From positions 1 to 64,000 of the forward strand of contig JAYRXR010000207.1 of NCBI GenBank assembly GCA_041917435.1: 64,000 bases of DNA, in the 5' to 3' direction. Source of the stretch: Actinomycetota bacterium. Its GTDB lineage: Bacteria > Acidobacteriota > Blastocatellia > Chloracidobacteriales > Chloracidobacteriaceae. A program made the position numbers and the translations under genes. This document shows, one piece after another, positions 4,918 to 57,280 of the stretch; within the stretch, counting starts at the first letter, position 1; each line of letters begins with the position of its first letter. The notes beneath the pieces are model-generated. The model made no database searches. It was given only the letters and a program-made list of their open reading frames with translations, and had not been told where the DNA came from.

Positions 4918-7395
4918 ATGAAATCCCTCACTCGCGGCCTGTTGCTGCTTTTTCTCGTCGTCAGTTGCGCCGCCGCCGTCACGGTCCGGTTCAGAACCTC
5001 GGACACCAGCGTTTCGGCGGACACCAATTCAAAACAGAATCCCGGAGAACTGCTCTGCTTCACCGACAAGGGCGAGGCCAGGGGCGTCTGCCCGCTCAAG
5101 CATACCGACGTGAAGGCCGACATCACCGGCTTTCTCTCGCGCGTGACCGTCACGCAGGAATTCGAAAACCCTTTTAAAGAAGCCGTCGAAGCCGTCTATA
5201 CGTTTCCCCTTCCGCAAAACGCCGCCGTGGACGACATGACCATGACCATCGGCGACCGGACCATCCGCGGCCTCATCAAACGCCGCGAGGAAGCGAAGGA
5301 AATCTACGAAGCGGCCAAACAGGCCGGAAAAACCGCGTCGCTGCTCGATCAGGAGCGCCCGAACATCTTTACCCAGTCAGTCGCCAACCTGACGCCGGGC
5401 GCGAAGGTCACCATCACCATCAGTTATGTCGAAACCCTGAAATATGAGGCGGGGACATACGAATTCGTCTTTCCGATGGTCGTCGGACCGCGCTACATCC
5501 CCGGTCAGCCGACCGGGAAGCAGGCGGGCGGGACCGCTCCCGACACGACACAGGTTCCGGATGCCTCGCGCGTCACGCCCCCGGTCACTCCGGCGGGCAC
5601 GCGCGCGGGCCACGACATTTCGCTCACCGTCAATCTCGACGCGGGCGTTCCCATCACCAACTTCACGAGCGTCAATCATAAAACCGAAGCCGACCGCTTC
5701 ACCGCGAACCGGGCGCGCATCACGCTCCAGTCGGCGAATGAAATTCCGAATCGGGATTTCGTCCTCAAGTACGACGTGGCCGGCAAGAAAATCGAAGACG
5801 GCCTGTTCGTTCACCGGAGCAACAAGGGCGGTTACTTCACGCTCATGCTGCAACCGCCCGACCGCGTGATGCCGACCGACGTGACGCCCAAGGAACTCGT
5901 CTTCGTCATCGACACGTCCGGCTCGATGATGGGCTTCCCGCTCGACAAGGCGAAGGAATGCATGAAGCTCGCGATGGACAACCTCTATGACTACGACACG
6001 TTCAACCTGATAACCTTTTCGGGCGACACGCACCTGCTGTTCCCCGGCCCGGTTCAGGCCACGCGTGAAAACCTTGCCAAAGCGCAGGCGTTTCTCGACG
6101 GCCAGCGCGGCGGCGGCGGAACTGAGATGATGACGGCCATTCGGGCCGCGCTCGAACCTTCGGATAAGCAGGACCACGTCCGCATCGTCTGCTTCATGAC
6201 CGACGGCTATGTCGGGAACGACTTTGAAATCATCGGCGAAATTCAAAAACACCCGAACGCCCGCGTCTTCTCCTTCGGCGTCGGCAATTCCGTGAACCGT
6301 TTCCTGCTCGACGGCATGGCTCGCGAAGGACGCGGCGAAGTCGAATACCTTTCACTGAATGAAGACGGCTCGGCGGCGGCCAAGCGCCTGCACGAACGCA
6401 TCCGCAACCCGCTCCTGACCGACATTTCGCTCGATTTCGGCAATCTGCCGGTGACCGACGTCTATCCGAAACGCATCAACGACCTCTTTTCCGCCAAGCC
6501 GGTTTTCGTCACCGGCCGCTTCACCGGCCCCGGAAAGGGCGCGATCAAGCTGCGCGGAAAAATGATGGGCAAACCCTACGAACGCGAAATCCCGCTGACA
6601 TTGCCGGAGAACGAACCAAACCACGATGTTCTTTCGGGACTGTGGGCGCGCAACCGCATCGACGACCTGATGGCGCAGGATTTGCCCGGTCTCCAGCGCG
6701 GAACGATGAAGCCCGAAATTCAGGAAGTCATTACCCAGATCGGCCTTGAATACCGGCTGATGACGCAGTTCACGTCGTTCGTGGCGGTCGAGGAAACGGT
6801 CGTCAACGAAGGCGGCCAGCAGCGGCGGATTCAGGTCCCGGTTGAACTGCCCGAAGGCGTCAGCCGCGCCGGAATCGAAGGCGTGACGGATGAAGAAGCC
6901 GACGGGCTGCCGGCCAATCGTTACTACAGTGGCGGGGGAATCGCTGCGGGCCGGAAGAGTCAGCCGATGAAGCGCCGCATTGCGCCGAAGTCTCCGCCAA
7001 CGGGGGTTTACCGGGATTCCAGGACCATCAACAACATTCCGACCGCGAAACCAGCCGAGAAAGTGGCGACGCCGGATGTCGATACCAAGCCGGACCCGAA
7101 CACGGTTCGCAGTCCGAAACTTCATCCGACGCTGGCCGCCATCGTCGAACGGCTGCAAAAGAAATCCGCCGCCGTCCCGCCCGAGGAAGCCCGCGTCGTC
7201 AAGGACGGCAAGGTTGAAGTTCAGGTGATGTTGACCGACGGTTCGCCCGCGACCATTGAAAAGCTCAAGGCGCTCGGCGCGGAATTCGTCATCACCCCCA
7301 ACGGCAAGCGCATCGTGGTGATGAAGATCGCCATCGAAAAACTCGATGCCCTGTCGAAGCTGGCGGAAGTGCGCTACGTCACGCCACAGAATTGA
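4918..7395 (+). CDS. secreted VIT-domain plus von Willebrand factor A-domain protein
   Basis: GGAGGT RBS 4 nt upstream, signal peptide (LLLLFLVVSCAAA) and an N-terminal VIT region. The vWA MIDAS motif DTSGSM sits at ~5920 and a long C-terminal extension follows. Confidence 0.75.
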   Translation: MKSLTRGLLLLFLVVSCAAAVTVRFRTSDTSVSADTNSKQNPGELLCFTDKGEARGVCPLKHTDVKADITGFLSRVTVTQEFENPFKEAVEAVYTFPLPQNAAVDDMTMTIGDRTIRGLIKRREEAKEIYEAAKQAGKTASLLDQERPNIFTQSVANLTPGAKVTITISYVETLKYEAGTYEFVFPMVVGPRYIPGQPTGKQAGGTAPDTTQVPDASRVTPPVTPAGTRAGHDISLTVNLDAGVPITNFTSVNHKTEADRFTANRARITLQSANEIPNRDFVLKYDVAGKKIEDGLFVHRSNKGGYFTLMLQPPDRVMPTDVTPKELVFVIDTSGSMMGFPLDKAKECMKLAMDNLYDYDTFNLITFSGDTHLLFPGPVQATRENLAKAQAFLDGQRGGGGTEMMTAIRAALEPSDKQDHVRIVCFMTDGYVGNDFEIIGEIQKHPNARVFSFGVGNSVNRFLLDGMAREGRGEVEYLSLNEDGSAAAKRLHERIRNPLLTDISLDFGNLPVTDVYPKRINDLFSAKPVFVTGRFTGPGKGAIKLRGKMMGKPYEREIPLTLPENEPNHDVLSGLWARNRIDDLMAQDLPGLQRGTMKPEIQEVITQIGLEYRLMTQFTSFVAVEETVVNEGGQQRRIQVPVELPEGVSRAGIEGVTDEEADGLPANRYYSGGGIAAGRKSQPMKRRIAPKSPPTGVYRDSRTINNIPTAKPAEKVATPDVDTKPDPNTVRSPKLHPTLAAIVERLQKKSAAVPPEEARVVKDGKVEVQVMLTDGSPATIEKLKALGAEFVITPNGKRIVVMKIAIEKLDALSKLAEVRYVTPQN

Positions 7396-7474
7396 AGATT
7401 GAAGATTGAAGATTTTCGATTGAGGAAAGGGCGGACCGATTCTGGCCCCAATCTCAAATCGAAAATCTTCAATC
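7396..7474. repeat. STR-armed hairpin (caatcgaaaatcttc family); likely bidirectional terminator
   Basis: Arm gattgaagattgaagattttcgattgag (7396-7425) pairs with ctcaaatcgaaaatcttcaatc (7450-7474) across a ~24-nt loop. The module tcttcaatcaaaaatcaccgcattgtcgcYggc is repeated at 7466-7498 and 7568-7600. The element lies between convergent gene ends. Confidence 0.5.
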
Positions 7475-7582
7475 AAAAATCACCGCATTGTCGCTGGCCC
7501 CCTGAAGATCGAAGGCTTTTAAATTGAACTTGTGACGGTCACCCCCTTCTTCAATCGAAAATCTTCAATCTTCAATCAAAAA

Positions 7583-22459: not shown

Positions 22460-22585
22460 CAGTGGCCAGCAGTCAGCAGCCAGTGGTCAGTATTTGAATC
22501 AACCTTGTCAAACTTCAACGTCACCTTTTGAAATAATGGCAACTGGCGACTGACCACTGACGACCGGCAACTGACTACTGACCCA
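22460..22585. repeat. STR-armed hairpin (cagtggt family)
   Basis: Left arm cagtggccagcagtcagcagccagtggtcagt, a ~47-nt loop and right arm gcaactggcgactgaccactgacgaccggcaactgactactgaccc. Confidence 0.5.
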
Positions 22586-22601: not shown

Positions 22602-24134
22602 ATGAGTGAACCGACCGCTGTCGTCGAACCGACTGTCGCGCCGCCGCCTCCGAAAAAGAAGGATGCCGACTATGTTTTTCTCGAACTGACCCGCAGTATC
22701 TGTTCGGAATGCAAAAAGGTGCTGGACGCCCACGTCATCGTCCGGAACAACAAGGTCTACATGCGGAAACGCTGCGACTGCGAGGCGACCGGGGGCAAGA
22801 CGATCGAATCGCTGATCTATTCCGACGCGAACGCCTACATTCACAACGTCCGCTACAACAAGCCGGGCACGATTCCGCTGCATTACAACAGTGAAGTCGT
22901 CGAAGGCTGCCCGCATGACTGCGGCCTCTGCCCCGACCACCAGCAGCACACCTGCCTCGGCATCATCGAAGTCAACAGCTACTGCAACATGGATTGCCCG
23001 CTGTGCTTCGCCGAAGCCGGTCCGGGCTTCCAGCTCACGATGGAAGAAGTCGTGGACATTCTCGACAACTTCGTGAAGGCCGAGGGCCGGGCGGAAGTGG
23101 TGCAGTTTTCGGGCGGCGAGCCGAGTATCCACCCGCAGATTCTCGACTTCATGCGCGAGGCCAAGAAGCGTCCGATCAACCTCGTGATGCTCAACACCAA
23201 CGGCAAGCGCATTGCCAAGGACGACCAGTTTCTCGAAGAACTCGCCGAAATCCGGCCCGCCATCTACTTCCAGTTCGACGGCTTCGACAAGGAGACGTAC
23301 CGCGTCATCCGCGGCGAGGAAAACATCCTCGAAGAAAAGCTCAGGGCGCTCGACCGGCTGGCTGAAAAAGGCATGTCCGTGGTGCTCGTGCCGGCCATCG
23401 AACGCGGCGTCAACGACCATGAAGTCGGCAGGATCGTGAAGTTCGCGATGGAGCACCCGGCGGTGCGCGGGGTCAACTTCCAGCCCGCGTTCCACGCCGG
23501 ACGCCACATGGACCACGACCCGATGCAGCGCATGACGATTCCCGACATCGTCGGCATGATCGAGACGCAGACCGAGGAAATGTTCAAGAAGAGCGACTTC
23601 ATCCCCGTTCCCTGCTGCTTCCCGACCTGCAATTCGGTGACCTACGCCTTCATTGAAAACGGCAACGTAACGCCGCTGCCGCGCGTGGTGAACGTCTACG
23701 ATTACCTCGACTACATCACGAACAAGGTCCTGCCGGACTACAGTTCGGAGATCAAGATCGCGCTGGAAGGGCTGTGGTCGTCCTCGACCGCGCCGGGCAC
23801 GCAGAAAAACGCCGAGGACTTCCAGGTTTCCTGCCAGGCGTGCGGTTTCGAGTCGTTCAGCATCGGCGACATCGCCAAGAACGTGAAGATGATCATGATG
23901 CAGGACTTCATGGACCCGCACACCTTCAATCAGAAGAACCTGATGAAGTGCTGCAAGGAATTCCTGCTGCCGGGCGGCAAGCAGGTGCCGTTCTGTTCCT
24001 ACAACACGATCGGCTACCGCGAACAGGCCCGCGAACAGCTCGACGAGATGGAATGGGAGCGCAAACTGGCGAAGAAAGAAGGCAAGCCTTTCGAGGTTCG
24101 CCCGGTGACATTCTCGTTCAAGGACAAGAAATAA
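22602..24134 (+). CDS. radical SAM enzyme with N-terminal Cys4 ribbon and two auxiliary Cys clusters (tetraether/membrane-spanning lipid synthase-like)
   Basis: AAGGAG RBS. CSEC...CDC forms a rubredoxin/Zn-ribbon-like site. An auxiliary CPHDCGLCPDHQQHTC motif precedes the radical SAM CNMDCPLC (CX3CX2C) and GGEP motifs. C-terminal Cys motifs (CCFPTC, CQAC, CC...C) follow. Length 510 aa. Confidence 0.7.
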   Translation: MSEPTAVVEPTVAPPPPKKKDADYVFLELTRSICSECKKVLDAHVIVRNNKVYMRKRCDCEATGGKTIESLIYSDANAYIHNVRYNKPGTIPLHYNSEVVEGCPHDCGLCPDHQQHTCLGIIEVNSYCNMDCPLCFAEAGPGFQLTMEEVVDILDNFVKAEGRAEVVQFSGGEPSIHPQILDFMREAKKRPINLVMLNTNGKRIAKDDQFLEELAEIRPAIYFQFDGFDKETYRVIRGEENILEEKLRALDRLAEKGMSVVLVPAIERGVNDHEVGRIVKFAMEHPAVRGVNFQPAFHAGRHMDHDPMQRMTIPDIVGMIETQTEEMFKKSDFIPVPCCFPTCNSVTYAFIENGNVTPLPRVVNVYDYLDYITNKVLPDYSSEIKIALEGLWSSSTAPGTQKNAEDFQVSCQACGFESFSIGDIAKNVKMIMMQDFMDPHTFNQKNLMKCCKEFLLPGGKQVPFCSYNTIGYREQAREQLDEMEWERKLAKKEGKPFEVRPVTFSFKDKK

Positions 24135-24213
24135 ACACAGAGACACAAAGTCACGAAGACACAAAGATTCCTTTCTTTTCTTCGTGCCTTCGTGACTTTG
24201 TGCCTTCGTGTTG
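24135..24213. repeat. STR-armed hairpin (cacaaag/cacgaag family) between rSAM and methyltransferase genes
   Basis: aacacagagacacaaagtcacgaagacacaaag-attcctttcttttc-ttcgtgccttcgtgactttgtgccttcgtgtt. Confidence 0.5.
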
Positions 24214-30918: not shown

Positions 30919-31857
30919 ATGCTCATGAACGCAGCGTCGGCGACCGCCGAATCTGAAAACCCTTCGTCCCCGACCCGAACGCTTTCACTCGGCGGTTTGA
31001 CCATTCGCCTGATCGGGTCGGGCGCGTCCGCTCCCCTGATTGAGCCGGTTTCCCGGCGTTTTCTGGTGGATTCGGACGAAAAACCGGCTATCGCGCTCGA
31101 AATCGGCGAGGGCGATCCGGCGGAATTCGAGAGTCTGGCTCGTCAAAAGCCTTTTTTCGATTCCGGCGGGACGTGGAAGCTCTATCGGAAAGACGGAAAG
31201 CTCGTCTACGCCGTCACGGTTCCGATTTTCGGTGATATTCCCTACCGTTTTCTCGAAGTCGCCGACGATTTCTCATCGGGTCGGCTGCTGATCAATCCGA
31301 AGGCCGGAGTTCCCGACCACTGCCTTTTCCCGCTCGCCTTCCCCCTCGACGAACTTCTCATCGCGAATCTGCTGACCCTCCCCGGAAACGAAGGGGTACT
31401 GCTCCATGCCTGCGCGGTGACCGACCCGGACGGAAACGCTTTCGTCTTCGTCGGACAATCCGGGGATGGAAAATCCACCACCGCCCGGCTCTGGGCCGCG
31501 CGCGCGGGGATGACCATTCTGACGGACGAACGGGTCATCATCCGTCGTCACGACGACGGGTTTTATGTGTACGGCACGCCCTGGCACGGCGACCAGCTCG
31601 CCGCCGTGGCCGACCGGGCCAAAATTTCCGGTCTGTTCATTCTCCGCAAGGGTCAGGCCAACGCCGTCACTGAAACCCGGCCCAGCCTTGCGTCCGCGCT
31701 CCTGTTCGCGCGGTGTTTCCCGCCGCTTCACTCTCCGGAAAGTCTTTCCGCGACGGCGGCTCTTCTTGAATCCCTCGTCACCAACGTTTCCTGTCGGGAA
31801 CTTCATTTCCTTCCGGACAACTCCGCCGTGGATTTCGTCCGCGGGCTTTTCGCCTGA
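30919..31857 (+). CDS. HPr kinase C-terminal-domain-like P-loop protein (HprK-related kinase)
   Basis: P-loop GQSGDGKST in an HprK_C-like context (LLHACAV...G.AFVFVG.SG.GKST). Confidence 0.6.
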   Translation: MLMNAASATAESENPSSPTRTLSLGGLTIRLIGSGASAPLIEPVSRRFLVDSDEKPAIALEIGEGDPAEFESLARQKPFFDSGGTWKLYRKDGKLVYAVTVPIFGDIPYRFLEVADDFSSGRLLINPKAGVPDHCLFPLAFPLDELLIANLLTLPGNEGVLLHACAVTDPDGNAFVFVGQSGDGKSTTARLWAARAGMTILTDERVIIRRHDDGFYVYGTPWHGDQLAAVADRAKISGLFILRKGQANAVTETRPSLASALLFARCFPPLHSPESLSATAALLESLVTNVSCRELHFLPDNSAVDFVRGLFA

Positions 31858-31863
31858 CGCGCC

Positions 31864-32283
31864 ATGAAATCGGCGTTCGGCAGTTTCGGGGAAAATCTCG
31901 GCGGTGTTTTTCCGAGGGTCGCCATGGAACTGCTCCGGGAAGGCCGGGCAATCCGTTTTCGGGCGGTTGGATGGAGCATGCACCCGGCCATCGAGGATGG
32001 TGAAACCATTTCGGTTCATCCAATCTCCCCGATGGACCTGAATGTCGGGGATGTCGCCCTTTTCCACATTGAAGACCGGTTGATCGCCCACCGGGTTCTC
32101 CGGTGTCCCTCCCCCGAAAACCCGAATTTTTTGTTGCGGGGGGACGCAATGGCGGAAGGCGAATCCGTAACCGGGGATCAAATTCTCGGAATTGTCCCGG
32201 ACCGGTCACTCGCGCCCCGTCAGGCTGCGGCCAAACGGCTGGTTCATCGGCTCAAACGACGGCTTTTCCCCAAAAAACCGTAA
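31864..32283 (+). CDS. S24/S26 (LexA/signal-peptidase fold) peptidase
   Basis: GWSMHPAIEDGETISV matches the G-SM-P-DGD-V Ser nucleophile region. The ORF is 139 aa. Confidence 0.5.
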   Translation: MKSAFGSFGENLGGVFPRVAMELLREGRAIRFRAVGWSMHPAIEDGETISVHPISPMDLNVGDVALFHIEDRLIAHRVLRCPSPENPNFLLRGDAMAEGESVTGDQILGIVPDRSLAPRQAAAKRLVHRLKRRLFPKKP

Positions 32284-32309
32284 AAATCGGCCCTGCCCGA
32301 TCCGGCGAA

Positions 32310-33500
32310 TTACTTCCGGACAATCGCGCACCCAAGCGCCGGGCGGCAGCCATCCGTGATGGTTTGGCCAGCCAGTACGGCGTCGAGCGCAAGCTGGAGC
32401 GACCGGTGCGTCACCCGATCCGCGTGGTACGTGTTGTCGTCAATCCTTCCGTGATAACGAAGAAATCCTTTTGAATCAATAAGGTATGACTCCGTCATAC
32501 ACATCGAGTTGAGTGTGTCGGCAACCGCGTGCCCGGTATCCACCGCAATCGGGAAATTGAAGGGCCGCGCCTGCTGTCGATTCCGGATTTCCTGGGGGGG
32601 TTCGTTGGCGTTCGGATTGAAACCGATGAAAACGACGCCCTTTTCACCATAGATTTTGGCCAGATCGTTTAACCGCGCCCGGTACGCCTCGACGCAGGGA
32701 CAACGCGTGCCGACCGTCACCAGAACGACCGGTTTCCCTTTGTAATCCGAGAGTTTATGAACTTTCCCGTCCAGGTCGGTCAGGGAAAGGGCCGGCGCGG
32801 GTTCGTTCAACCCGACCGCCGCTTCGTCGGCGGATTGCGCGTGGCCGGCGTGTTCGAAATCGTCGCCGACCGTTCTCCCGCTGAGCAGATCGAAACCGAA
32901 CGCCCCCGCGCCGAAAATCGAGCTGACGAACAATCCGAGAATACAACCGGCCACGGCGGCGGTCCGGACGGTTTTCGGACCGAAAACGGCCGGGAACGCC
33001 TGCTGGGCGGTCAGAATCGGCAGCCCGCCGAAGCCGAAACAGGCCATGGCAATCGCGCCCTGCTTCACTTCCCACGTCGTGAACGCCAGAACGAAAACCG
33101 CCAGAACCAGAATATTCGGGTGAAGTATCGAAAACGCCCCGCGCAGGAACAAACCGCCGGCACTCTCGGCGTTCAGCAGGATTCCCGTCAGTTTCTTCGA
33201 CCATTCAGGCTCGAACGTATCGGCCTTGGAACGAAAAAGCCTGACCGGGAGCGCAATCGCGGCAAACGCCACGACCACGCAGGGGATAAAGAAAACGTAC
33301 CTTCCCCAGCCGATGAGATAGGCGGCTTCGATAAACCAGAGACCGAGTTGACCGGCAAACGCGCCGAGCGCGGCCAGTCCGGCGACGCGTCCGAGACCGA
33401 ACGTCATCAGTTTGGAGGGATCGAACCGGTCCAGCCGGGCCGTCCGCATGCGTAACCGTTCGATGATGCCGAGCAGAAAGGCGGCAATCAGAAAAACCAT
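32310..33500 (-). CDS. MauE/DoxX-type membrane domain fused to thioredoxin-like (TlpA/redoxin) domain
   Basis: The N-terminal ~200 aa is polytopic membrane. The C-terminus has a thioredoxin fold with the motif TRCPCV. Confidence 0.6.
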   Translation of the reverse strand: MVFLIAAFLLGIIERLRMRTARLDRFDPSKLMTFGLGRVAGLAALGAFAGQLGLWFIEAAYLIGWGRYVFFIPCVVVAFAAIALPVRLFRSKADTFEPEWSKKLTGILLNAESAGGLFLRGAFSILHPNILVLAVFVLAFTTWEVKQGAIAMACFGFGGLPILTAQQAFPAVFGPKTVRTAAVAGCILGLFVSSIFGAGAFGFDLLSGRTVGDDFEHAGHAQSADEAAVGLNEPAPALSLTDLDGKVHKLSDYKGKPVVLVTVGTRCPCVEAYRARLNDLAKIYGEKGVVFIGFNPNANEPPQEIRNRQQARPFNFPIAVDTGHAVADTLNSMCMTESYLIDSKGFLRYHGRIDDNTYHADRVTHRSLQLALDAVLAGQTITDGCRPALGCAIVRK

Positions 33501-35580: not shown

Positions 35581-35657
35581 GAACACAAAGGCACAAAGGC
35601 ACGAAGACACGAAGTTTTTCTTTCTTTGTGTCTTTGTGCCTTCGTGTCTTTGTGTTC
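35581..35657. repeat. STR-armed hairpin (cacaaag/cacgaag family)
   Basis: gaacacaaaggcacaaaggcacgaagacacgaag-tttttctttc-tttgtgtctttgtgccttcgtgtctttgtgttc. Confidence 0.5.
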
Positions 35658-37723: not shown

Positions 37724-37872
37724 AAAGGATGAAGGATGAGGGATGAAGGATGAAAAATCGTTTTGAATGTTGAGTTTGGGCGAAATAAGGAATTTTTCCG
37801 AATTCCGAAAAACTCATAATTCATCACTCAAAACTTTCCTTCATCCTTCATCCTTCCGCCTTCATCCTTTCA
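37724..37872. repeat. STR-armed hairpin (ggatgaa family) with nested palindrome
   Basis: aaaggatgaaggatgagggatgaaggatgaaaaa ... ccttcatccttcatccttccgccttcatcctttc. The loop contains tttttccgaattccgaaaaa. Confidence 0.5.
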
Positions 37873-38895
37873 ACGTCGGTGGTTGTCGATTTTCGCCAGG
37901 GAGCCGCCGAAGGCGAATTTAAGGACGTTTTCGGCGTTCAGAAAACGGTTTGGGAAGCCCGGTTCAATGGCGCTGATGTCGTCGAGACGGGCGATCTGCT
38001 CGGCGGTGAGGGTGAATTCGAGGCTGGCGAGGTTGTCCTTCAACTGGTCGAGTTTCGTCGCACCGATGATCGGAATCACCGTCTGGGGACGCTGCCTCAG
38101 CCAGTTGATCGCCACCTGCGCCGGTGAGCGTCCGATTTCGGTGGCGATTTCAACCACCACGGCGGCGATGTTGCGGTCGCGTTCCTGCGTGTTTTTCAGG
38201 CGGCCCGGCGCGGGCGCGCCTTCGGTAACGTTGTTGTACTTCCCGGTCAGTACGCCGCCGCCGAGCGGACTCCACGCCGTCACGCCGATGTCGAAGTGCT
38301 TCGCCATCGGAATCAGGTCGCGCTCGACGGTGCGTTCACGCAGCGAGTATTCGATTTGAAGTCCGACGAAGGGCGTCCAGCCGCGCAGTTCGGCGACCGT
38401 GTTGGCGTGGGCGACGATCCACGCGGGGGTGTCGGAAATTCCGGCGTAAAGAATTTTTCCCTGCCGGACGAGGTCATCGAACGCCCGCATGAGTTCGTCC
38501 ACCGGCGTGGTGAAATCCCAGATGTGCAGCCAGAGCAGGTCGATGTAATCGGTTCCGAGCCGTTTCAGGCTGGCTTCCACCGCCTGGACCATGTTTTTGC
38601 GGTGGTTGCCGCTCAGGTTCGGGTCGCCGTTGCCCATATCGAGCGAATACTTGGTGGCGACCACCCACCGGTCGCGGTCATCGGCGATGAATTCCCCGAC
38701 GAATTTCTCGCTCGTGCCCTTCGTGTAGAAGTTGGCGGTGTCGATGAAATTCCCGCCCGCCTCGGCGTAGGCGTCGAAAATCTTCCGGCTTTCCTTCTTC
38801 GAAGCGCCCCATTCCCAGTCCTTGCCGAAGCCCATCGCGCCGAAACAGATTTCCGAGACGCGAAGGCCCGATTTTCCGAGCAGTTTGTAACGCAT
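37870..38895 (-). CDS. aldo/keto reductase
   Basis: Start at ATG 38893-38895 (MRYKLLGKSGLRVSEICFGAMGFG...), with the AKR catalytic tetrad context. Confidence 0.75.
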   Translation of the reverse strand: MRYKLLGKSGLRVSEICFGAMGFGKDWEWGASKKESRKIFDAYAEAGGNFIDTANFYTKGTSEKFVGEFIADDRDRWVVATKYSLDMGNGDPNLSGNHRKNMVQAVEASLKRLGTDYIDLLWLHIWDFTTPVDELMRAFDDLVRQGKILYAGISDTPAWIVAHANTVAELRGWTPFVGLQIEYSLRERTVERDLIPMAKHFDIGVTAWSPLGGGVLTGKYNNVTEGAPAPGRLKNTQERDRNIAAVVVEIATEIGRSPAQVAINWLRQRPQTVIPIIGATKLDQLKDNLASLEFTLTAEQIARLDDISAIEPGFPNRFLNAENVLKFAFGGSLAKIDNHRR

Positions 38896-40049: not shown

Positions 40050-40390
40050 GTTTTCGTTTTGAACCCTGATGTCTGGACACTTTTCAAGAACTGCGTGTTT
40101 CGTACGTCTTCATCGGTTTTCGTCCCGTAGGGACGGTTGAAAATAGCCCGCCGTTTTAACGGCGGGAACGCGCAGGGCCACGCCCCAAAGTCCCAAAGGG
40201 ACGACAGATGGAGGCGGATTCTGATTCTCGGCCGTCCCTCCGGGACTCTCAATCTCTTGCCACGCTTGTCCCACCGTTAAAACGGTGGGCTATTTTCGAC
40301 CGTCCCTTCGGGACGAAGACAATTTCGACCTTTATTTGCGGGATATTTTTGAAAAGTGTCCCGACTTCAGTTTTGAACCTTAAAAAGCCG
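40050..40390. repeat. composite inverted-repeat element (MITE-like or structured RNA) with four GTCCC-N3-GGGAC palindromes
   Basis: A ~50-bp module (40108-40160) recurs inverted at 40263-40318. Palindromes sit at ~40119, 40190, 40233 and 40301. gttttgaacc ends occur at 40057 and 40370. Confidence 0.45.
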
Positions 40391-41096: not shown

Positions 41097-42557
41097 TCAT
41101 TCAATCGAGCTGAATTTCAGGTTCGGGTCCTCGATGACGCCCTTTCGAAGCACCTTGACGTCGGCGAAGTAGTTCCACCCCATCGTCCAGGGGTAGGCGT
41201 CGCCCTGTCGCGGCAGGGTTGAAATCGACCGCTGGACATACCCCGCGCTGAAATCCAGAAACGGACGGGTCGGCATGGCCGGATCCGCTTGCGGCACGCA
41301 GATATCGACCTTTTTGGCGTCCATGTAGTCGAGCAGGCGGCAGAAATGCTCGCACAGCAGCCCGACCTTGAGCGTCCAGGACGACGCGGTGTAGCCGATG
41401 GCCAGCGCGTAGTTCGGCACGCCGCTCAACATCATTCCCCGGAAGGATACCCGCTCGTGAATCCGGACCGGTTCGCCGTCCACTTCAAGGCCGATTCCGC
41501 CCAACGGAAGCAGGTTCAACCCCGTCGCGGTAACAATGATGTCGGCGTCGAGTGTCGTGCCCGATTCCAGTTCGATGCCGGTTTCGGTGAAGGTCCGGAT
41601 GCGATCCGTCACCACGGACGCCGTTCCCCGCTTGATGGCGTTGAACAGATCGCCGCCGGGCACGGCGCACAGCCGCTGGTCCCACGGGCCGTAGGTCGGA
41701 TTGAAATGCACGTCCACCGGATACCCCGGCGGCAGCATTCTGGCGTTGACGTAGCGGATGAACGCGCGGGCCAGTCCGGGAAATTTCTGGCAGAACTGGT
41801 ACACCAGCCGCTGGCGCAGGATGTTTTTGTTCCGGGTAAAACCGTGCGCCAGCTTGCCGCCGAGCAACCGGCGCAATCGGGACGCCCACGGGTCATGTTC
41901 GGGGACCGGCAGCACGTAGGTCGGCGTTCGCTGCAACATCACGACGTGCGCGGCCTTTTCGGCCATCGCCGGAACGAGCGTGACGGCGGTCGCCCCGCTG
42001 CCGATGACGACGACGCGCTTGCCCGCGTAGTCGAGGTCTTCCGGCCAGAGCTGCGGATGGATGACGGGACCGGTGAACCGTTCGCGGCCCTTGAATTCGG
42101 GCGTAAAACCCTTGTCGTAGCGATAGTAACCCGTCGCCGAGAAAATCCACTTCGCCTCGAACTCGACGGTTTCGCCCGTGTCGCTCCGCTCCGCCGTCAC
42201 GCGCCAGCGGGCGGTTTTCGAGGACCATTTCGCGCTCGATACCCGGTGGCGGTAGCGGATATGGCGGTCGATGCCGTTTTCACCGGCGGTTTCAACGAGA
42301 TACGCCTTGATGGACGGCCCGTCGGCAATCGAGACGGTGCTGTCCCACGGCTTGAAGTCGTAGCCGAAGGTGAACAGGTCGGAATCCGACCGGATGCCTG
42401 GGTAACGAAACAGGTCCCACGTCCCGCCGAGGTCATCGCGCGATTCGAGGATGACGAACCGCGTTCCCTTCCGGCTTCGCGTCAGGTGACAGGCCGCGCC
42501 GATTCCCGAAATACCGGCGCCGATAATCAGAACGTCCACCGAATTTTCCGGCTGCAT
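41097..42557 (-). CDS. flavin-containing/Baeyer-Villiger-type monooxygenase
   Basis: FAD GxGxxG (IIGAGISG), the FMO motif FRYPGIRSD, and an NADP GxGxxA/G (VVVIGSGATA). Confidence 0.7.
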   Translation of the reverse strand: MQPENSVDVLIIGAGISGIGAACHLTRSRKGTRFVILESRDDLGGTWDLFRYPGIRSDSDLFTFGYDFKPWDSTVSIADGPSIKAYLVETAGENGIDRHIRYRHRVSSAKWSSKTARWRVTAERSDTGETVEFEAKWIFSATGYYRYDKGFTPEFKGRERFTGPVIHPQLWPEDLDYAGKRVVVIGSGATAVTLVPAMAEKAAHVVMLQRTPTYVLPVPEHDPWASRLRRLLGGKLAHGFTRNKNILRQRLVYQFCQKFPGLARAFIRYVNARMLPPGYPVDVHFNPTYGPWDQRLCAVPGGDLFNAIKRGTASVVTDRIRTFTETGIELESGTTLDADIIVTATGLNLLPLGGIGLEVDGEPVRIHERVSFRGMMLSGVPNYALAIGYTASSWTLKVGLLCEHFCRLLDYMDAKKVDICVPQADPAMPTRPFLDFSAGYVQRSISTLPRQGDAYPWTMGWNYFADVKVLRKGVIEDPNLKFSSIE

Positions 42558-42679
42558 GGGCTGTGGATCTCCAATGAAAGTTCAAAAAGGCATTTTGAAC
42601 CGCCACCGGACTTCGCGCCAAATGAAAAGTCGGCGGGACATTTCATGATTTCGCCTTCATCAGACTTCGAAACGGCAAC

Positions 42680-42900
42680 CGAAACGTTTTCCGCGACGCG
42701 AAATACCTTTTCTTCGTCAAAAGTACCTCTGGAACGACAGAAAATACCTTTCCGGCGTGAAGGAAAAGGTTTTCTTCGACGGAAAAAACGTTTTCCGCGT
42801 GGAGAAATACCTTTTCCTCATTGAAAAAACCCTGGGAACGCCGGGAAATACCTTTTCCCCGTCGTTCCGAAACAATTTCCCGCCGGAAAAACGAAAAGGG
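42680..42900. repeat. degenerate ~20-21-bp tandem array (~11 copies) in promoter region of monooxygenase gene
   Basis: Units of the form gaaaWWNSYTTTYC(N6-8). The core gaaataccttttc lies at ~42704, 42754, 42809 and 42849. Confidence 0.5.
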
Positions 42901-42957
42901 ACGCGACCGGAACACTCCGGTTTCATCCCTCATCCTTCCGCCTTCATCCTTTTCCGC

Positions 42958-43701
42958 CTAGGTCACCGTTCCGCCGTCCACGATGATCATTTCGCCGTTC
43001 ATGTAGCTGTTTCGCTCGGAAACCAGAAACGCGGCGAGTTCGGCGAGTTCCTCGGGCCGTCCGAGGCGACCGACGGAGCAGACCATCTCGTACATTTCAC
43101 GGAATTTGTCGGGCAGCGTATGACCGAGATCGGTGTCGAAGATGCCCGCCGCGATGCCGTTCACCAGCACGCCGAAGGGCGCGCCCTCGCGCGACAGCAT
43201 TTTCGTGAATCCGACCACCGCCGACTTGGTCGTGGCGTAGTGAACGCTCGTCGGGACGGTCCGGATGCCGCCGATGGAGCTGATGTTGAGAATCCGACCG
43301 TACCGATGGCGGACCATGTTCTTGAAAATCGGCTTGGTGACGTTGAAGAGGCCGTTGAGGTTGGTGTTGACGACTTCGTCCCACGCCCGGTCGGTCATGG
43401 TCAGAAACACGTCGCCCCGGTTGATGGCGGCGTTGTTGACGAGAATGTCGATCCGGCCGTACTTCTTGGTAATCTCGGCGACAATCTTTTTCAGACCGGG
43501 CCGGTCGGTGACCGAAACCTGATAGCCGTCAGCCCGACGCCCGTGCGCCCGGATGGCCTGAATCACTTCCTCGGCGGCGGCGGCGTTGCTGTTGTAATTG
43601 AAGACGACATCCGCGCCCTCGCGCGCGAAAACCTCGCAGATGCCGCGTCCGATGCCGCGTGAACCGCCGGTCACGAAGGCGACTTTACCGTCCAGAAGCA
43701 T
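42958..43701 (-). CDS. SDR-family oxidoreductase (FabG-like)
   Basis: TGGSRGIG, NNAA and the YxxxK motif are present. Confidence 0.8.
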   Translation of the reverse strand: MLLDGKVAFVTGGSRGIGRGICEVFAREGADVVFNYNSNAAAAEEVIQAIRAHGRRADGYQVSVTDRPGLKKIVAEITKKYGRIDILVNNAAINRGDVFLTMTDRAWDEVVNTNLNGLFNVTKPIFKNMVRHRYGRILNISSIGGIRTVPTSVHYATTKSAVVGFTKMLSREGAPFGVLVNGIAAGIFDTDLGHTLPDKFREMYEMVCSVGRLGRPEELAELAAFLVSERNSYMNGEMIIVDGGTVT

Positions 43702-45458: not shown

Positions 45459-45480
45459 GAGGGGGAAACTCCAAATTTTA

Positions 45481-47455
<1,975 letters not shown>

Positions 47456-48457: not shown

Positions 48458-49402
48458 ATGGAAATTCTTTTTTTCGGAACGAGTTCCGCCGTACCGACCC
48501 GCAGTCGCAACGTTTCGGGCCTCGGATTCAAACCGACGCCCCGGCGCGAATGGTGGCTCTTCGATTGCGGAGAAGGCACCCAGCACCGGGTTCAGCAATC
48601 GAACTACTCGCTGGCCGATCTGACGAAGATTTTCATCACCCATATGCACGGGGACCACGTGCTTGGCCTGCCGGGCCTGCTGGCGAGCGCCGGGATGGGC
48701 GGACGCCGCGACCGGCTGGATCTGTTCGGCCCGCCGGAACTCCCCGAATTCGTCGAACATTCCCTGAGACTGACCCAGACCTATCTGCCCTACCCGACCA
48801 ACTTCCATGACATTTCGGAAGGATTCATCTGGGAGGACGACCGTCTGACGGTTACGTCCGAGGCCTTGAAACACCGGGTACCGGCCTATGGCTACCGGGT
48901 CGCGGAAAAACATTCGACCGGGCGCTTTCTGGTCGAAAAGGCGCGTGAACTCGGAATTCCCGTCGGCCCGGTCTACACCCGGCTGAAACGCGGGGAAACC
49001 GTAACGCTCGACGATGGCCGGACCATCGACGGACGCGACCTGTGCGAAGACCTGCGCCCTGGCCGGGTGTTCGCCTACTGTACCGACACGACCTACTGCG
49101 AAGCGTCGATCCGGCTGGCGCGGCACGCGGACGTACTCGTCCACGAATGCACATACCTCAACGCGGATGAAAAACGCGCCGTTGAATCCACCCATTCGAC
49201 CGCCGGGATGGCCGGCCGGGTGGCCCGGGAGGCCGAAGCCCTGCGACTGATCGTCACGCATTTCAGCGCCCGGTACAGCGAAGAGGGCGACCCCGCCTTC
49301 CTGACCCTGCTCGACGAGGCGCGGGCGGAATTTCCGCGAACCGAAGCGGCCCGCGAACTCACCCCCTACGCCATTACCGGAAGGATGAAGGATGAAGGAT
49401 GA
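48458..49402 (+). CDS. rnz: ribonuclease Z (MBL-fold tRNA 3'-processing endonuclease)
   Basis: Start at ATG 48458 (MEILFFGTSSAVPT). Contains the HxHxDH motif (HMHGDH). The 3' end runs into the ggatgaa repeat. Confidence 0.7.
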   Translation: MEILFFGTSSAVPTRSRNVSGLGFKPTPRREWWLFDCGEGTQHRVQQSNYSLADLTKIFITHMHGDHVLGLPGLLASAGMGGRRDRLDLFGPPELPEFVEHSLRLTQTYLPYPTNFHDISEGFIWEDDRLTVTSEALKHRVPAYGYRVAEKHSTGRFLVEKARELGIPVGPVYTRLKRGETVTLDDGRTIDGRDLCEDLRPGRVFAYCTDTTYCEASIRLARHADVLVHECTYLNADEKRAVESTHSTAGMAGRVAREAEALRLIVTHFSARYSEEGDPAFLTLLDEARAEFPRTEAARELTPYAITGRMKDEG

Positions 49403-49525
49403 AGGATGAAGGATGAAGGATGAAGGATGAAGGATGAAGGACCGTCAGGTTTCGACTCCGGCTTGTCAAGAATTTTTCAACCCGAATCAGACTTTTCTTC
49501 ACTTCATCGTTCATCATTCATCGTT
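49381..49525. repeat. STR-armed hairpin: 8 x ggatgaa then complementary ttcatc arm
   Basis: (ggatgaa)x8 at 49381-49438 overlaps the last codons of rnz. cttcacttcatcgttcatcattcatcg lies at 49496-49522. Confidence 0.6.
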
Positions 49526-49545
49526 TTCTTGACTCCAGACTTTTT

Positions 49546-50391
49546 TCAGTTCGTTCGCGAATACGACTTCACGCGGCTGAGAAACTGGTTGATGTCAGCC
49601 AGAACCTCGCCGTGTGAATCGAGGGCGAAAAGGTTGAGCTTCAAGGCCTGTTCGAGATGCTGTTCCGGCTTCAGCTCGACGCCGAGCGACCCCTTCGGGA
49701 AAAACTCGGACCGTAGAACCGACAGGTGGTAGGCGTTTTTTCCGCCATTGTCGGTGTTTTCATCCCGCCAGCCGAAAAAAACGTAACAGGCTTTGTCGCC
49801 CCTGATCAAAAGGAACATTTCAACGGCGTCGAAGGTCCCGATGAACCGCGATTCGTCCGAGGCGAGGATGTCCCGCGGGCTTTCCGGCGCGGGCGTCGGG
49901 GTTGTCCTGAAGGAGTTGGCAATCCGGCTGTTCAGGCGCTTGTCGGCGGAAACAACCGCCACATTGCGGAGTTTTTCGGGCGGCGAGATGGTCCCGAACA
50001 GCGCCGAAACCTCGTCGTAGTCCTTCTTTACCTCAAGGTACAGGGCGACCATCGGCTTGTAGTTGGGAGAATTCGGGTTTGTCCGGTAGACGCGGCTGAT
50101 CTGGTCGTAGCAACCGGTGAGCTTCCGGTACAAATCGTCAATCCGGCCACGATACCCGGCGAAGGCGGTCTGATACCCGTTGAAATCCACTGACTGTGGA
50201 TTCGGTCGGGTCAACATCCCGGTTTTCAAATCGATTTCGGTTTTGAGCTTTGCGAGTTGCTCGCGAATGCCCTGAAGGTTTCCCAGAACCTGTGACTCGG
50301 CAACGACCTCCCCGTTTTGGGCGGGCGTTGACGGCGCACCTGAAAAAATCCACGCGACAACCAGAAAGAACACGAGAAAGCGATGCCTCAT
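49546..50391 (-). CDS. secreted hypothetical protein
   Basis: Signal peptide (MRHRFLVFFLVVAWIFSGAPSTPAQ). No family was recognised. Confidence 0.4.
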   Translation of the reverse strand: MRHRFLVFFLVVAWIFSGAPSTPAQNGEVVAESQVLGNLQGIREQLAKLKTEIDLKTGMLTRPNPQSVDFNGYQTAFAGYRGRIDDLYRKLTGCYDQISRVYRTNPNSPNYKPMVALYLEVKKDYDEVSALFGTISPPEKLRNVAVVSADKRLNSRIANSFRTTPTPAPESPRDILASDESRFIGTFDAVEMFLLIRGDKACYVFFGWRDENTDNGGKNAYHLSVLRSEFFPKGSLGVELKPEQHLEQALKLNLFALDSHGEVLADINQFLSRVKSYSRTN

Positions 50392-50530: not shown

Positions 50531-50570
50531 AAAAAAACAGAAACCCCGTTCGCGGCGAGCACGAACGGGG
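50531..50570 (-). terminator. intrinsic terminator of TonB-receptor gene
   Basis: On the minus strand: ccccgttcgtgctcgccgcgaacgggg followed by tttctgttttttt. Confidence 0.55.
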
Positions 50571-55212: not shown

Positions 55213-55340
55213 GGAAATGCGGAATGCGGAATATCGAATGCGGAATAGCAATTTTTAGAGTAAAAAGCCGGGTTTCGAACTTCCTGACTTGAAAAATGGT
55301 TCGAAAATTCCGCATTCGATATTCCGCATTCCGCATTTTT
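55213..55340. repeat. STR-armed hairpin (gcggaat family)
   Basis: gaaatgcggaatgcggaatatcgaatgcggaat ... gaaaattccgcattcgatattccgcattccgcattttt. Confidence 0.5.
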
Positions 55341-55342
55341 CA

Positions 55343-57172
55343 ATGACCGCCCCTGCCCCGAACCCCCGCGCTTTTCCCGTTCGCTTCGACGTCGCCATCC
55401 TGCTGGTGGCGTCCATCGTTTTTCTTTCCGCCTGTTTTTCACCGCCGAATCTGATGGACGACGTGGATTCCGCGCAGGTGGCGATTGCCCGGACGATGCT
55501 CGAAACCGGCGACTGGGTGACGATGCGGCTCAACGGCATCGCCTATCTTGAAAAAGCACCGTTGAAATACTGGCTGATCGCCGTTTTCTTCAGGATTTTC
55601 GGCGTCAGCGACTGGGCCGGACGACTTCCCATCGGCCTCGCGACCGTCGGCCTGTGCTGGGTGACCGGACGGTTCACGGCGTGGGCGTTCGGCGCGCGCG
55701 CCGGACTGTACGCCGGGCTGACGCTCGCGGGCGGCCTCGGCCTGTTTCTGTTCACCCGTATTCTGATTCCCGACTCGACGCTCACGCTGACCATCGCCCT
55801 CGCGATGTGGGGATTTCTCCGGTCGCTCGATCCGGATGAAAAAAATCCGCGCCGGTGGTCGTTCATCGCCGCGCTGTGCATTGCCGCCGGGCTGCTCCTG
55901 AAGGGCCTCATCGCCGCCGTGTTCCCGGTCGCGGCGATTTTCCTGTATCTGGCGATTTCGGGGCGACTGCTCGACCGGGAAGTCTGGAAAAAGCTCCATC
56001 CCGTTCAAAACATTGTGGTCATCCTGCTCGTCGCGGCCCCGTGGTTCGTGCTGGCGACGCTCCAGAACCCGCCCTACTTCGTGTTTTCGATGGAGAGCGC
56101 GCCCGGTCAGTACAAGGGCTTTTTCTGGTTCTATTTTTTTAACGAACACATCCTGCGCTTCCTCGGCCGGCGCTATCCGCGCGACTACAACACGGTCCCG
56201 CGGCTGTGGTTCTGGACCTCGCACCTCGTCTGGTTCTTTCCGTGGAGCGCATTCCTTCCCGGCGTGTTCAAACTGGGGTTCACCCGTCGCCCCGAAGATC
56301 GCGAAGGCGCGGCGAAACTGCTCGCGCTGTGCTGGATCGGGTTCGTCATGGTGTTTTTCACGCTTTCGACGACCCAGGAGTACTACTCGCTGCCGATTTA
56401 CCCGGCCGTCGCGATGCTGCTCGGCGCGGCGATGGCGCAGGGCGGGAAAGCGGTCACGTTCGGACGCTGGGCGACGAGCGTCATCGCCGGACTGGCGGCG
56501 CTGGCGTCCGGGTGGATTCTGTTCACCGTTCGGAACATTCCGACGCCCGGCGACATCGCGCAGGCGCTCCAGAAAAGCACGGACGTCTATTCGACCTACA
56601 CGCTGTCGCTCGGCCACATGGGCGATTTGACGTTGAAATCCTTTGCCTACTTGCGGTTACCGCTCGCGCTCGCGGCGGCGGCGTTTCTCGTCGGCGCGGT
56701 CGGCGTCCACATCGGCGCGAAACGGAAGGAGGGCCACCAGCCGTTCGCGGCGCTGGCGGTGATGATGTTGCTCTTTCTGGTGGCGGCGCGGATTGCGATG
56801 GTGGCGTTCGACCCGTATCTCGGCTCGCGCCCGCTCGCGGAAAGCCTCAAAACATCGCTCGCGAGCCAGCCCGGCAAGGTTGTCGTGGACAACCAGTACT
56901 ACGCCTTCTCGTCGGTTTTCTTTTACGCCGACCTGAAATCCGCCCTGCTGCTCAACGGACGCACCACCAACCTCGAATACGGCTCGAACGCCCCCGGCGC
57001 GCCCGACGTGTTTCTCGACGACCCGAAATTCCGCGAACTGTGGATGAAGCCCGAACGGGTCTACCTGCTGGTGGAGGACGTCAATCTGCCCCGAATCGAA
57101 AAACTCGTCGGGAAGGAAAACCTGAAGAAGGTGGCGTTCAGCGGCGGGAAATATCTGTTCACGAATCAGTAG
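55343..57172 (+). CDS. ArnT/PMT-like (GT39/GT83) membrane glycosyltransferase
   Basis: Start at ATG 55343. It is a ~12-TM protein with an N-terminal DD/DE loop (MDDVDSAQ) and a C-terminal soluble domain. Confidence 0.65.
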   Translation: MTAPAPNPRAFPVRFDVAILLVASIVFLSACFSPPNLMDDVDSAQVAIARTMLETGDWVTMRLNGIAYLEKAPLKYWLIAVFFRIFGVSDWAGRLPIGLATVGLCWVTGRFTAWAFGARAGLYAGLTLAGGLGLFLFTRILIPDSTLTLTIALAMWGFLRSLDPDEKNPRRWSFIAALCIAAGLLLKGLIAAVFPVAAIFLYLAISGRLLDREVWKKLHPVQNIVVILLVAAPWFVLATLQNPPYFVFSMESAPGQYKGFFWFYFFNEHILRFLGRRYPRDYNTVPRLWFWTSHLVWFFPWSAFLPGVFKLGFTRRPEDREGAAKLLALCWIGFVMVFFTLSTTQEYYSLPIYPAVAMLLGAAMAQGGKAVTFGRWATSVIAGLAALASGWILFTVRNIPTPGDIAQALQKSTDVYSTYTLSLGHMGDLTLKSFAYLRLPLALAAAAFLVGAVGVHIGAKRKEGHQPFAALAVMMLLFLVAARIAMVAFDPYLGSRPLAESLKTSLASQPGKVVVDNQYYAFSSVFFYADLKSALLLNGRTTNLEYGSNAPGAPDVFLDDPKFRELWMKPERVYLLVEDVNLPRIEKLVGKENLKKVAFSGGKYLFTNQ

Positions 57173-57280
57173 CCAGTGGTCAGCAGTCAGTGGTCAGTGG
57201 TCAGTAAAAACAGTTTGCTGATCACTGGCCACTGACAACTGGCGACTGGCCACTGGCCACTGGCCACTCCTCACGCCAGC
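57168..57280. repeat. STR-armed hairpin (cagtggt family) between convergent genes
   Basis: cagtagccagtggtcagcagtcagtggtcagtggtcagt ... tcactggccactgacaactggcgactggccactggccactggccactcc. Confidence 0.5.

Follow-up and report, generated by a model that had tools for sequence, protein, structure and literature searches.

The window analysed here is a 64,000 nt stretch of DNA from an acidobacterium of the class Blastocatellia, near Chloracidobacterium. The heptamer GGATGAA is dispersed as tandem arrays over three intergenic loci in the window, located at the ends of an aldo/keto reductase gene (B1), an RNase Z gene (B2) and a short-chain dehydrogenase gene (B3). At all three of these Family B copies the array starts 0–2 nt from the stop codon or has the stop codon inside it. 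Since (GGATGAA)n adjoins the stop when the loci are taken gene by gene, B1, B2 and B3 are all sense-oriented at a stop codon. Tandem Repeats Finder reported period-7 arrays of 4.3, 4.7, 4.3, 8.9 and 3.3 copies, and perfect arrays of at least three copies numbered four at period 7 and zero at periods 5, 6 and 8. Allowing up to 2 mismatches, GGATGAAGGATGAA has 18 matches in the window compared to 0.45 expected, and 0 of 100 shuffles reached 18. Family B arms start with AAAGGATG, and the 23-nt string AAAGGATGAAGGCGGAAGGATGA is found directly 3′ of two different stop codons that are 5 kb apart. The repeat units are contiguous and without spacers, which bears on any comparison with CRISPR, and by sequence each unit of (GGAUGAA)n carries AGGA, AUG and UGA. 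An Rfam scan of the window gave no match at the hairpins described below, its sole matches being two Acido-Lenti-1 RNA motifs.

An earlier sequence-only reading had noted GGATGAA hairpins at B1 (37724–37872) and B2 (49381–49525) with arms that pair, and both were present, as inverted arrays at 37724–37870 (B1) and at 49380–49441 and 49503–49525 (B2). At B1, the aldo/keto reductase gene (37870..38895, minus strand) ends in a TGA at 37870–37872, and the 5′ arm, which reads AAAGGATGAAGGCGGAAGGATGAAGGATGAAGG, begins at this stop codon and covers 37818..37870 on the minus strand. The (TTCATCC)-type 3′ arm (37724..37776, minus strand) sits ~83 nt upstream of the start of a squalene-hopene cyclase gene at 37640, a start that is backed by an exact protein look-up. 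The arms are 53 nt each and 81% complementary with a loop of 41 nt, and include (AAGGATG)x4.3 at 37725–37754 and (TCCTTCA)x4.7 at 37837–37869 as called by Tandem Repeats Finder. The RNA fold of B1 is −72.9 kcal/mol with z = −9.9, where z-scores are for RNA against 200 dinucleotide shuffles. No U-tract follows B1.

B3 begins 2 nt past the stop TAG (42958–42960) of the short-chain dehydrogenase gene (42958..43701, minus strand). Its array (42921..42955, minus strand) is made of the units GGATGAA, GGCGGAA, GGATGAG and GGATGAA, with a core of (TTCATCC)x4.3 called at 42922–42951. The locus had been labelled a half-copy, and while the array is there the label does not hold, as a degenerate partner arm is found at 42882–42905. 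This partner (CGTCCCTTTTCGTTTTTCC) and an inner hairpin (ACCGGAGTGTTCCGGT) take up 42882..42920 on the minus strand, and the partner pairs with the array mainly through G·U pairs, only on the minus strand. The resulting fold is −37.2 kcal/mol (z = −3.5) on the minus strand versus −24.6 on the plus strand, and the same strand asymmetry (−36.2 versus −19.4) is seen in the counterpart of B3 in the related lineage L127.

B2 lies between two convergent genes. The RNase Z gene (48458..49402, plus strand) encodes 314 aa from its true start at MEILFFG, as opposed to the 382-aa ORF, and facing it is a hypothetical gene of 281 aa (49546..50391, minus strand) that has no Pfam match and is syntenic in L127 and a further related lineage, L126. 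The 5′ arm of B2 is a perfect (GGATGAA)x8.9 array at 49380..49441 on the plus strand that supplies the RNase Z stop TGA at 49400–49402. The 3′ arm (49503..49525, plus strand) has 3.3 units reading TTCATCG, TTCATCA and TTCATCG, rather than the TTCATCC that had been noted, and is the complement of CGATGAA/TGATGAA. On the minus strand this arm is a (CGATGAA)-type 5′ arm positioned 20 nt past the stop of the convergent gene (49546–49548). The two arms have one mismatch per unit, 8.9 versus 3.3 units and a loop of 61 nt; they still pair, with a fold of −54.6 kcal/mol (z = −2.76) that is weaker because the arms are very unequal. A U-tract (TTTTCTT) is located 3′ of B2 on the plus strand.

The overlap of the B2 array with RNase Z had led to the proposal that the repeats encode the C-terminus of the protein, and that slippage would alter this tail and shift the stop codon. 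The array does encode the last residues (G-R-M-K-D-E-G), but the coding part is only 21 nt, or 3 of the 8.9 units, leaving the remaining ~6 units as 3′ UTR. With closer examination, a TGA is met in all three frames of (GGATGAA)n within 21 nt of entry into the array, since the unit has a TGA in it and its length, 7, shares no factor with 3, and therefore any copy number of at least 3 gives the same RNase Z protein. Read in antisense, (TTCATCC)n has no stop in any frame. A comparison of repeat number among strains had been suggested, and it appears variable, with 8.9 units in the window, 10.9 in L127 and 3.9 in L126, where an assembly collapse is possible. The L126 and L127 contigs are otherwise 100% identical over 20.9 kb and may share one population, and both give the identical RNase Z orthologue (P0001, 87% identical, tail GRMKDEG), so neither the altered tail nor the shifted stop was borne out. 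The residues affected by the array lie past the conserved domain, and orthologues vary freely at these positions.

The array itself is not an assembly artefact, a concern raised when it was first described: the same RNase Z/array junction is found in three independent Logan assemblies, and an array occupies the same RNase Z site in a sister lineage. In a metagenome scan the exact ORF/array junction had 0 matches, and a protein-based metagenome scan returned relatives of at most 50% identity, none with matching context.

Family B is not alone in the window. Approximately 12 hairpins have short-tandem-repeat (STR) arms, and nearly all of them start 0–8 nt from a stop codon or overlap one. Other units include ATTGAAG/ATTTTCG, CACAAAGG/CACGAAG, AATGCGG, TCAGTGG and GACTCCC, and the folds of these other hairpins range from −39 to −99 kcal/mol on one strand or the other. 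Two of the hairpins are found between convergent stops, an ATTGAAG/ATTTTCG hairpin at 7391..7577 (stops 7395, plus strand, and 7583, minus strand) and a TCAGTGG/CCACTGG hairpin at 57166..57268 (stops 57172, plus strand, and 57271, minus strand). A CAGTGG/CAGCAG hairpin (22460..22580) starts 1 nt past the stop at 22458 (plus strand), a CACAAAG/CACGAAG hairpin (24134..24212) begins at the stop of a radical-SAM gene (24134, plus strand), and a CACAAAGG/CACGAAG hairpin with an 8-nt unit (35581..35657) is 6 nt past the squalene-hopene cyclase stop (35664, minus strand). A second ATTGAAG/ATTTTCG hairpin, which has a 42-bp higher-order repeat, covers 45475..45702 and begins at the CTP synthase stop (45701, minus strand), and an AATGCGG hairpin with perfectly complementary 32-nt arms (55215..55338) takes up the space from the GT21 stop (55209) to the PMT_2 start (55342).

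In all, 14 gene ends have a 5′ arm that overlaps the stop or is no more than 8 nt from it (7395, 7583, 22458, 24134, 35664, 37870, 42958, 45701, 49402, 49546, 55209, 57172, 57271 and 61453), with the exception of 49546, where the gap is 20 nt. These gene ends come from an ORF-based and GC-frame-based gene map, and the genes concerned have Pfam support, except the one that ends at 49546; the Pfam scan took in 16 of the ~45 genes in the window. The window PyrG is 79–80% identical to that of Chloracidobacterium species. Every convergent gap inspected, a set without 31857–32310, has either a repeat array or a large hairpin in it, and just one STR hairpin, at 18093–18182, is in a divergent gap. The strand asymmetry that an RNA-level structure would show (G·U rather than A·C pairs) is seen for B1, B3 and the 45475–45702 hairpin, and is reversed at 22460, 24134 and 35581, so that it gives no uniform direction. 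Loops of the class are 9–130 nt, stems reach 50 nt, and a U-tract follows only some of the hairpins. A consensus terminator scan of the window left B1, B2, B3 and the other STR hairpins uncalled, and terminator-like sites in the window were not enriched (23 versus 23.2 in shuffles). Classical terminators are also present, for example at 50541–50573.

To see how such a site changes between relatives, we compared RNase Z orthologues of 80–100% protein identity, looking at the DNA that follows the conserved ...TPYAITG. The window, L127 and L126 have a GGATGAA array at the RNase Z stop and the tail GRMKDEG, and L132 has a GGATGAA array with a 1-nt change at the junction, giving the tail GKDEG. In L131 two CGATGAA units are followed by a GGAGTCT-family hairpin and the tail is GTMNDER. 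L133 and L134 both end in LGRDE with the stop followed by (GATGGGG)n and (GATGAAC)n, respectively, and L130 ends in GRTD with the stop followed by GATTTTCGATTG. Array types found at this one stop in related strains include GGATGAA, CGATGAA, GATGGGG, ATTTTCG-type and GGAGTCT-type, and L133 and L134 have different repeat units while sharing the same protein and 97.1% DNA identity. The tails RMKDEG, TMNDER, KDEG, RDE and RTD result from changes in unit sequence or 1-nt changes at the junction, not from copy number. Since the 3′ arm of B2 in the window is still of the CGATGAA type, the comparison suggests that the perfect GGATGAA 5′ arm may be a recent expansion of a variant unit.

The B2 loop is 59% identical between the window and L127, with both arms kept. 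L127 also keeps every hairpin that follows the dehydrogenase, CTP synthase, GT21 or PMT_2 gene, with differences in units, copies and loops. At 57166–57268 a TCAGTGG-to-TTAGTGG change in one arm relative to L127 is matched by a complementary change in the other arm. Judged from these alignments, the place of the hairpin and its predicted pairing are kept between related lineages; the unit sequence, copy number and loop are not.

We then scanned one genome per species for (GGATGAA)3 and obtained at least 119 loci, with the matches listed coming from Planctomycetota, Acidobacteriota, Chloroflexota, Cyanobacteria, Verrucomicrobiota, Armatimonadota and others. Among the matches listed, 77 of 108 arrays (71%) had a sense-strand ORF end at the array compared to 10% of random positions, using a sense ORF of at least 100 aa that ends −40 to +21 nt from the array start, and the TGA of the array was itself the stop codon in 43 of those 77. 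Solo arrays, having no partner arm, made up 49 of the 108 matches listed, and of these 34 adjoined a sense and 3 an antisense ORF end. Of 132 arrays, again among the matches listed, 63 had a partner arm downstream and 0 had one upstream. Of the perfect arrays of at least three copies among the matches listed, 187 had period 7, compared to 3 with period 6 and 12 with period 8, though the query itself had picked out ~132 of the 187. The polarity extends to other units: in 29 hairpins built from other heptamers among the matches listed, the 5′ arm had G>C in 26 versus 2 (p = 3e-6), and A and T had no arm bias. Among the matches listed, the G-bearing, stop-containing arm is always 5′, on either strand. 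With the same arrangement at dozens of unrelated genes, the overlap with RNase Z is a rule and not a curiosity.

Long, stable stem-loops mark gene 3′ ends, and the stop codon and final 1–6 residues of the upstream protein often come from the array. We lean, with modest confidence, towards reading these as REP-like 3′-end stem-loops that act as terminators or exonuclease barriers and whose arms are built by slippage. That the class as a whole consists of genome-wide extragenic palindromes, with arms made mostly of 7-nt tandem repeats on or just past stop codons, is likewise somewhat probable. We infer a 3′-end role from the position, stability and polarity of the hairpins and from the conservation of their place. 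The transcript would fold into a stem-loop at the 3′ end of the mRNA, functioning as a REP/BIME-like element or a non-canonical bidirectional terminator that could stop or pause RNA polymerase and block 3′-to-5′ exonucleases. Between convergent genes such a hairpin would set the transcript ends, and within operons it may set the stability of individual segments. Replication slippage of the 7-nt unit would build and resize the arms, with perfect arrays (for example the one at 49380, with its 8.9 units) being putative recent expansions, and selection, intra-palindrome template switching or the two together may maintain the complementarity of the arms. As the array stops translation in every frame, its copy number is free to drift without changing the protein.

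Several observations sit poorly with this 3′-end stem-loop reading. The 55215–55338 hairpin fills the gap between two genes that are probably co-transcribed, an odd place for a strong terminator, another hairpin (18093–18182) is in a divergent gap, and the arms of B2 are poorly matched. With their long loops, their inconsistent U-tract and the lack of a call in the consensus scan, the hairpins are not canonical intrinsic terminators, of which the genome has classical examples, and the strand asymmetry is reversed at three of them. The reading also leaves the period of 7 and the placement of G on the 5′ arm without an account. Seeding of arrays on stop codons, which are free of C, accounts for the 5′ G-arm only in units that contain a stop.

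The arrays could instead be a mutational by-product without function, in which heptamer-biased slippage or template switching generates them and selection only clears coding and promoter DNA. We consider this unlikely, even though it covers some of the data, including the period-7 bias across unrelated phyla among the matches listed (187 versus 3 and 12) and the fast turnover of unit identity between the 97% identical L133 and L134. The copy numbers of 3.9 and 10.9 with all else identical and the way a perfect array outgrows its partner arm (8.9 versus 3.3 units at B2) would also be expected, and polymerase slippage as the source of a 7-nt bias is a published speculation (PMC4692102). Tolerance alone, however, does not predict that arrays start 0–8 nt from a stop while ~83 nt are left before the next start at B1. 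Nor does it predict the 34:3 sense bias of solo arrays or the 63:0 and 26:2 arm polarities among the matches listed, or that both arms are kept at orthologous sites with matched changes.

Protein- or ribosome-binding arrays are a second alternative, one that we find quite improbable. Here the single-stranded G-bearing arm would be a periodic landing site with access regulated by the complementary arm, and possible partners, proposed with the same reserve, are a CsrA-like protein, a cold-shock or S1-type OB-fold protein with one unit per monomer, or the anti-Shine-Dalgarno of a terminating ribosome. The SELEX consensus core for CsrA is ARGGAUG, which is repeated by a GGATGAA array, and each (GGAUGAA)n unit has an AGGA, an AUG and a UGA to offer. 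Partnerless solo arrays are common (49 of 108) and still sense-oriented at stops among the matches listed, the G-rich arm always comes first in the transcript among the matches listed, and the excess unpaired units of B2 would be accessible. OB-fold cold-shock proteins are also described as binding heptamer repeats with one protein per heptamer (PMC4679880). On the other hand, most arrays are base-paired in very stable stems. A sequence-specific binder is further disfavoured because units at the same site differ widely, ranging over GGATGAA, GATGGGG, ATTTTCG, GGAGTCT, CACAAAGG and AATGCGG.

It is very doubtful that the arrays are mobile elements, such as MITE- or REP-like copies spread by a transposase (e.g., of the RAYT type) that targets gene ends. 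Such copies would explain why the same unit families occur at several loci of one genome, why AAAGGATGAAGGCGGAAGGATGA follows two stop codons 5 kb apart, and why the GGATGAA unit is seen in many phyla among the matches listed. Against this, the loops and internal sequence of B1 and B2 are unrelated, the sequence has neither target-site duplications nor a GTAG/CGTC head, arm lengths and registers vary continuously, and unit changes occur in place at one site. A MITE was rejected specifically, given the lack of a conserved core and of a target-site duplication and the 59% identity of the orthologous B2 loop. The by-product, binding and mobile-element explanations each cover some of the features, and none of them joins stop abutment, polarity and conservation of place.

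We give similarly little credence to the idea that a dedicated process, specific for heptamers and common to different phyla, "writes" the arrays at the 3′ ends of genes in place of ordinary replication slippage. Transcription termination, or collisions at pause sites close to the stop, might be coupled to slippage or to reiterative synthesis; alternatively, the addition might be templated, resembling that of a reverse transcriptase or telomerase. If true, such a process would jointly explain the 7-nt period, the G-arm-first polarity, the seeding on stop codons and the replacement of units, which takes place wholesale at one site between 97% identical strains. Lastly, a phase-variable contingency locus, in which 7-nt slippage changes the RNase Z C-terminus or stop codon, is barely credible: the array overlaps the ORF end, has a unit that is not a multiple of 3 and appears to vary in copy number, but the TGA in all three frames within 21 nt, the identical P0001 from 3.9 and 10.9 units, the freely differing residues beyond the conserved domain and the same arrangement at dozens of unrelated genes speak against it, and a phase-variable RNase Z tail is refuted for copy numbers of at least 3.

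The 3′-end stem-loop reading can also be set beside known systems. Heptameric G-rich simple sequence repeat (SSR) arrays have been described by Rehm et al. (2015; PMC4692102) for GGGAATC in Xanthomonas and GGGGAYT in Nostoc, and by a citation in that paper the question of period 7 dates from a 2007 survey of prokaryotic SSRs. The Xanthomonas GGGAATC arrays prefer ~4 units, with 70–75 convergent inverted pairs per genome, and show a bias towards sense-strand positions no more than 50 bp from the stop, overlaps included, with lengths that differ between species (PMC4692102). RNA-seq in Xanthomonas found transcript starts and stops to be commoner at G-quadruplex-capable arrays than at control arrays, and Rehm et al. 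favoured G-quadruplexes (PMC4692102). The arrays described here share with these systems the dispersed, intergenic 7-nt units (typically ~4 per array), the convergent inverted pairs that could fold into stem-loops, the G-bearing sense strand that overlaps the stop or lies 0–50 bp from it, and the rarity between divergent genes. Array length varies between close relatives in the published systems and may do so here, as judged from L126 and L127, with an assembly collapse in L126 being possible. The differences are that the host is an acidobacterium, that the TGA of a GGATGAA array is often itself the stop codon, and that GGATGAA has GG runs only, with the co-resident ATTGAAG and CACAAAGG having even fewer G. 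Because of these short runs the G-quadruplex explanation does not apply to GGATGAA, and a G-quadruplex was rejected for this unit, which does not provide four tracts of at least 3 G.

Likenesses are also seen with the cyanobacterial STRR arrays and the TAACTGA arrays of Beggiatoaceae, cyanobacteria and Bacteroidetes (PMC4679880), in which heptamers are tandemly repeated and one genome has several families of unit. These arrays are mostly intergenic, break assemblies, and have one unit present in distant phyla without a known transfer mechanism (PMC4679880). TAACTGA arrays, however, are mostly found just upstream of start codons, with 1 indirect repeat in 170 sets (PMC4679880), whereas the window arrays are at stop codons and mostly in inverted pairs. 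The REP/BIME elements of enterobacteria and pseudomonads are similar in being imperfect extragenic palindromes at gene 3′ ends and between convergent genes, and the role proposed for them in stabilising mRNA 3′ ends or in termination is the model we propose for the window hairpins. REPs differ as 20–40 bp single palindromes with a conserved GTAG/CGTC head that are mobilised by RAYTs (PMC3733652). The window hairpins have tandem-repeat arms, a variable register and unit, and no GTAG/CGTC head. Like Rho-independent terminators and DUS/USS pairs, they form a stem-loop directly past the stop that is symmetric and can serve both convergent genes. Inverted pairs of DUS/USS act as terminators in Neisseria and Haemophilus, and there too a word over-represented genome-wide is reused as a stem. 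The loops of 9–130 nt, stems of up to 50 nt, inconsistent U-tract and absence from the consensus scan set the window hairpins apart from Rho-independent terminators, whose canonical form is a short G+C-rich stem with a loop of 3–8 nt and a U-tract immediately behind it.

We found no Chloracidobacterium-specific description of such repeats in the literature. The window element is an acidobacterial addition, not capable of forming G-quadruplexes, to the known heptameric SSR arrays at gene ends, and is not a new kind of system. The regularities measured in this study are stop abutment, stop donation, a G-bearing arm that always comes first, and a place that is conserved while the sequence is not, and earlier reports of them, in the literature surveyed, mostly concern a single G-rich unit in Xanthomonas and Nostoc. 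Their occurrence across phyla argues for a general 3′-end role of heptamer arrays that is independent of G-quadruplexes.

There are practical consequences for annotation. The array donates the stop and last 1–6 residues of many proteins, both here and in many other genomes, and since the tail comes from the array, C-terminal differences between strains at such genes are repeat noise and not adaptation. Assemblies also break at heptamer-array sites, and the Logan unitigs recovered by exact-protein look-ups end inside the array or inside the hairpins.

L133 and L134, two unitigs from related strains, share 97.1% identity and encode the same RNase Z, but right after the shared TGA (last 30 nt) L133 carries (GATGGGG)n whereas L134 carries (GATGAAC)n. 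The units found at the RNase Z stop site have in common GATG followed by three variable bases. In the window, short GACTCCGG/GACTCCAGACT remnants are seen at 49455-49470 and 49530-49542, on both sides of the loop of B2, the GGATGAA-repeat hairpin overlapping the RNase Z stop codon. These remnants match the GGAGTCT-family hairpin occupying the same site in another related strain (L131, 2005-2040 and 2150-2185), suggesting that several repeat families were layered here in succession.

A 23-nt variant string, AAAGGATGAAGGCGGAAGGATGA, is identical at 37848-37870 and 42933-42955 (both minus strand) and lies immediately 3′ of two different stop codons that are 5 kb from each other. Its recurrence hints at copying between the loci rather than slippage arising independently at each.

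A 42-bp tandem repeat at 17703-18013 (7.4 copies, 91% match) adjoins the 5′ end of the minus-strand gene 16401-17705, and this higher-order period, equal to 6 × 7, is shared with 42735-42831 and 45576-45702. The latter is an ATTGAAG/ATTTTCG hairpin 3′ of the CTP synthase gene and contains three 42-bp higher-order repeats; its counterpart in the syntenic block of the sister lineage (L127, 7084-7243) holds a single copy. Judging from this comparison, the hairpin at the CTP synthase end is expanded in the window relative to the sister lineage. A spacing of roughly 42 nt is also seen for the motif GAAAAGGTATTTC, which occurs about four times within 42600-42860, upstream of an FMO-like monooxygenase gene (41097-42557, minus strand). 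The entire 400-nt intergenic region holding these copies is 100% identical across three independent samples, and the repeats may be an operator array.

An AATGCGG hairpin with perfect 32-nt arms (55215-55338; 16757-16886 in the sister lineage) spans the entire intergenic space from the GT21 stop to the PMT_2 start, with just 5 and 3 nt to spare at the two ends. Including its loop, it is 93% identical between the two lineages, compared with 89-90% for the flanking coding DNA. The hairpin is likely within an operon, which would be an odd place for a terminator. A second hairpin, with 42-nt arms of CACGGAG-type units (18093-18182), is found between two genes that seem to diverge, on their promoter side, and is an exception to the rule that repeat hairpins sit at gene ends.

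A textbook intrinsic terminator (50541-50573, minus strand; 14-bp G+C-rich stem, 5-nt loop and T-run) sits 3′ of an 849-aa gene whose orthologue contains CarboxypepD_reg/OMP beta-barrel domains, indicating that the organism uses classical terminators besides repeat hairpins. Two copies of the Acido-Lenti-1 RNA motif (Rfam RF01687) were found between convergent genes at 40121-40166 (minus strand) and 40270-40315 (plus strand), scoring 46 and 50 bits. They are mutually inverted, forming an inverted repeat with 52-nt arms that are 90% complementary, and each has a terminator-like core of CCCGCCGTTAAAACGGCGGG then CTATTTTC.

One heptamer array occurs inside a coding sequence: compared with the window's gene, the squalene-hopene cyclase homologue of the cyanobacterium Stenomitos frigidus ULC029 (CP170648.1; locus L078, 6586-6664) carries an additional stretch of about 48 nt. 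This insertion holds (TTCATCC)4 in the coding sense, the orientation of (TTCATCC)n that is open in all three frames.
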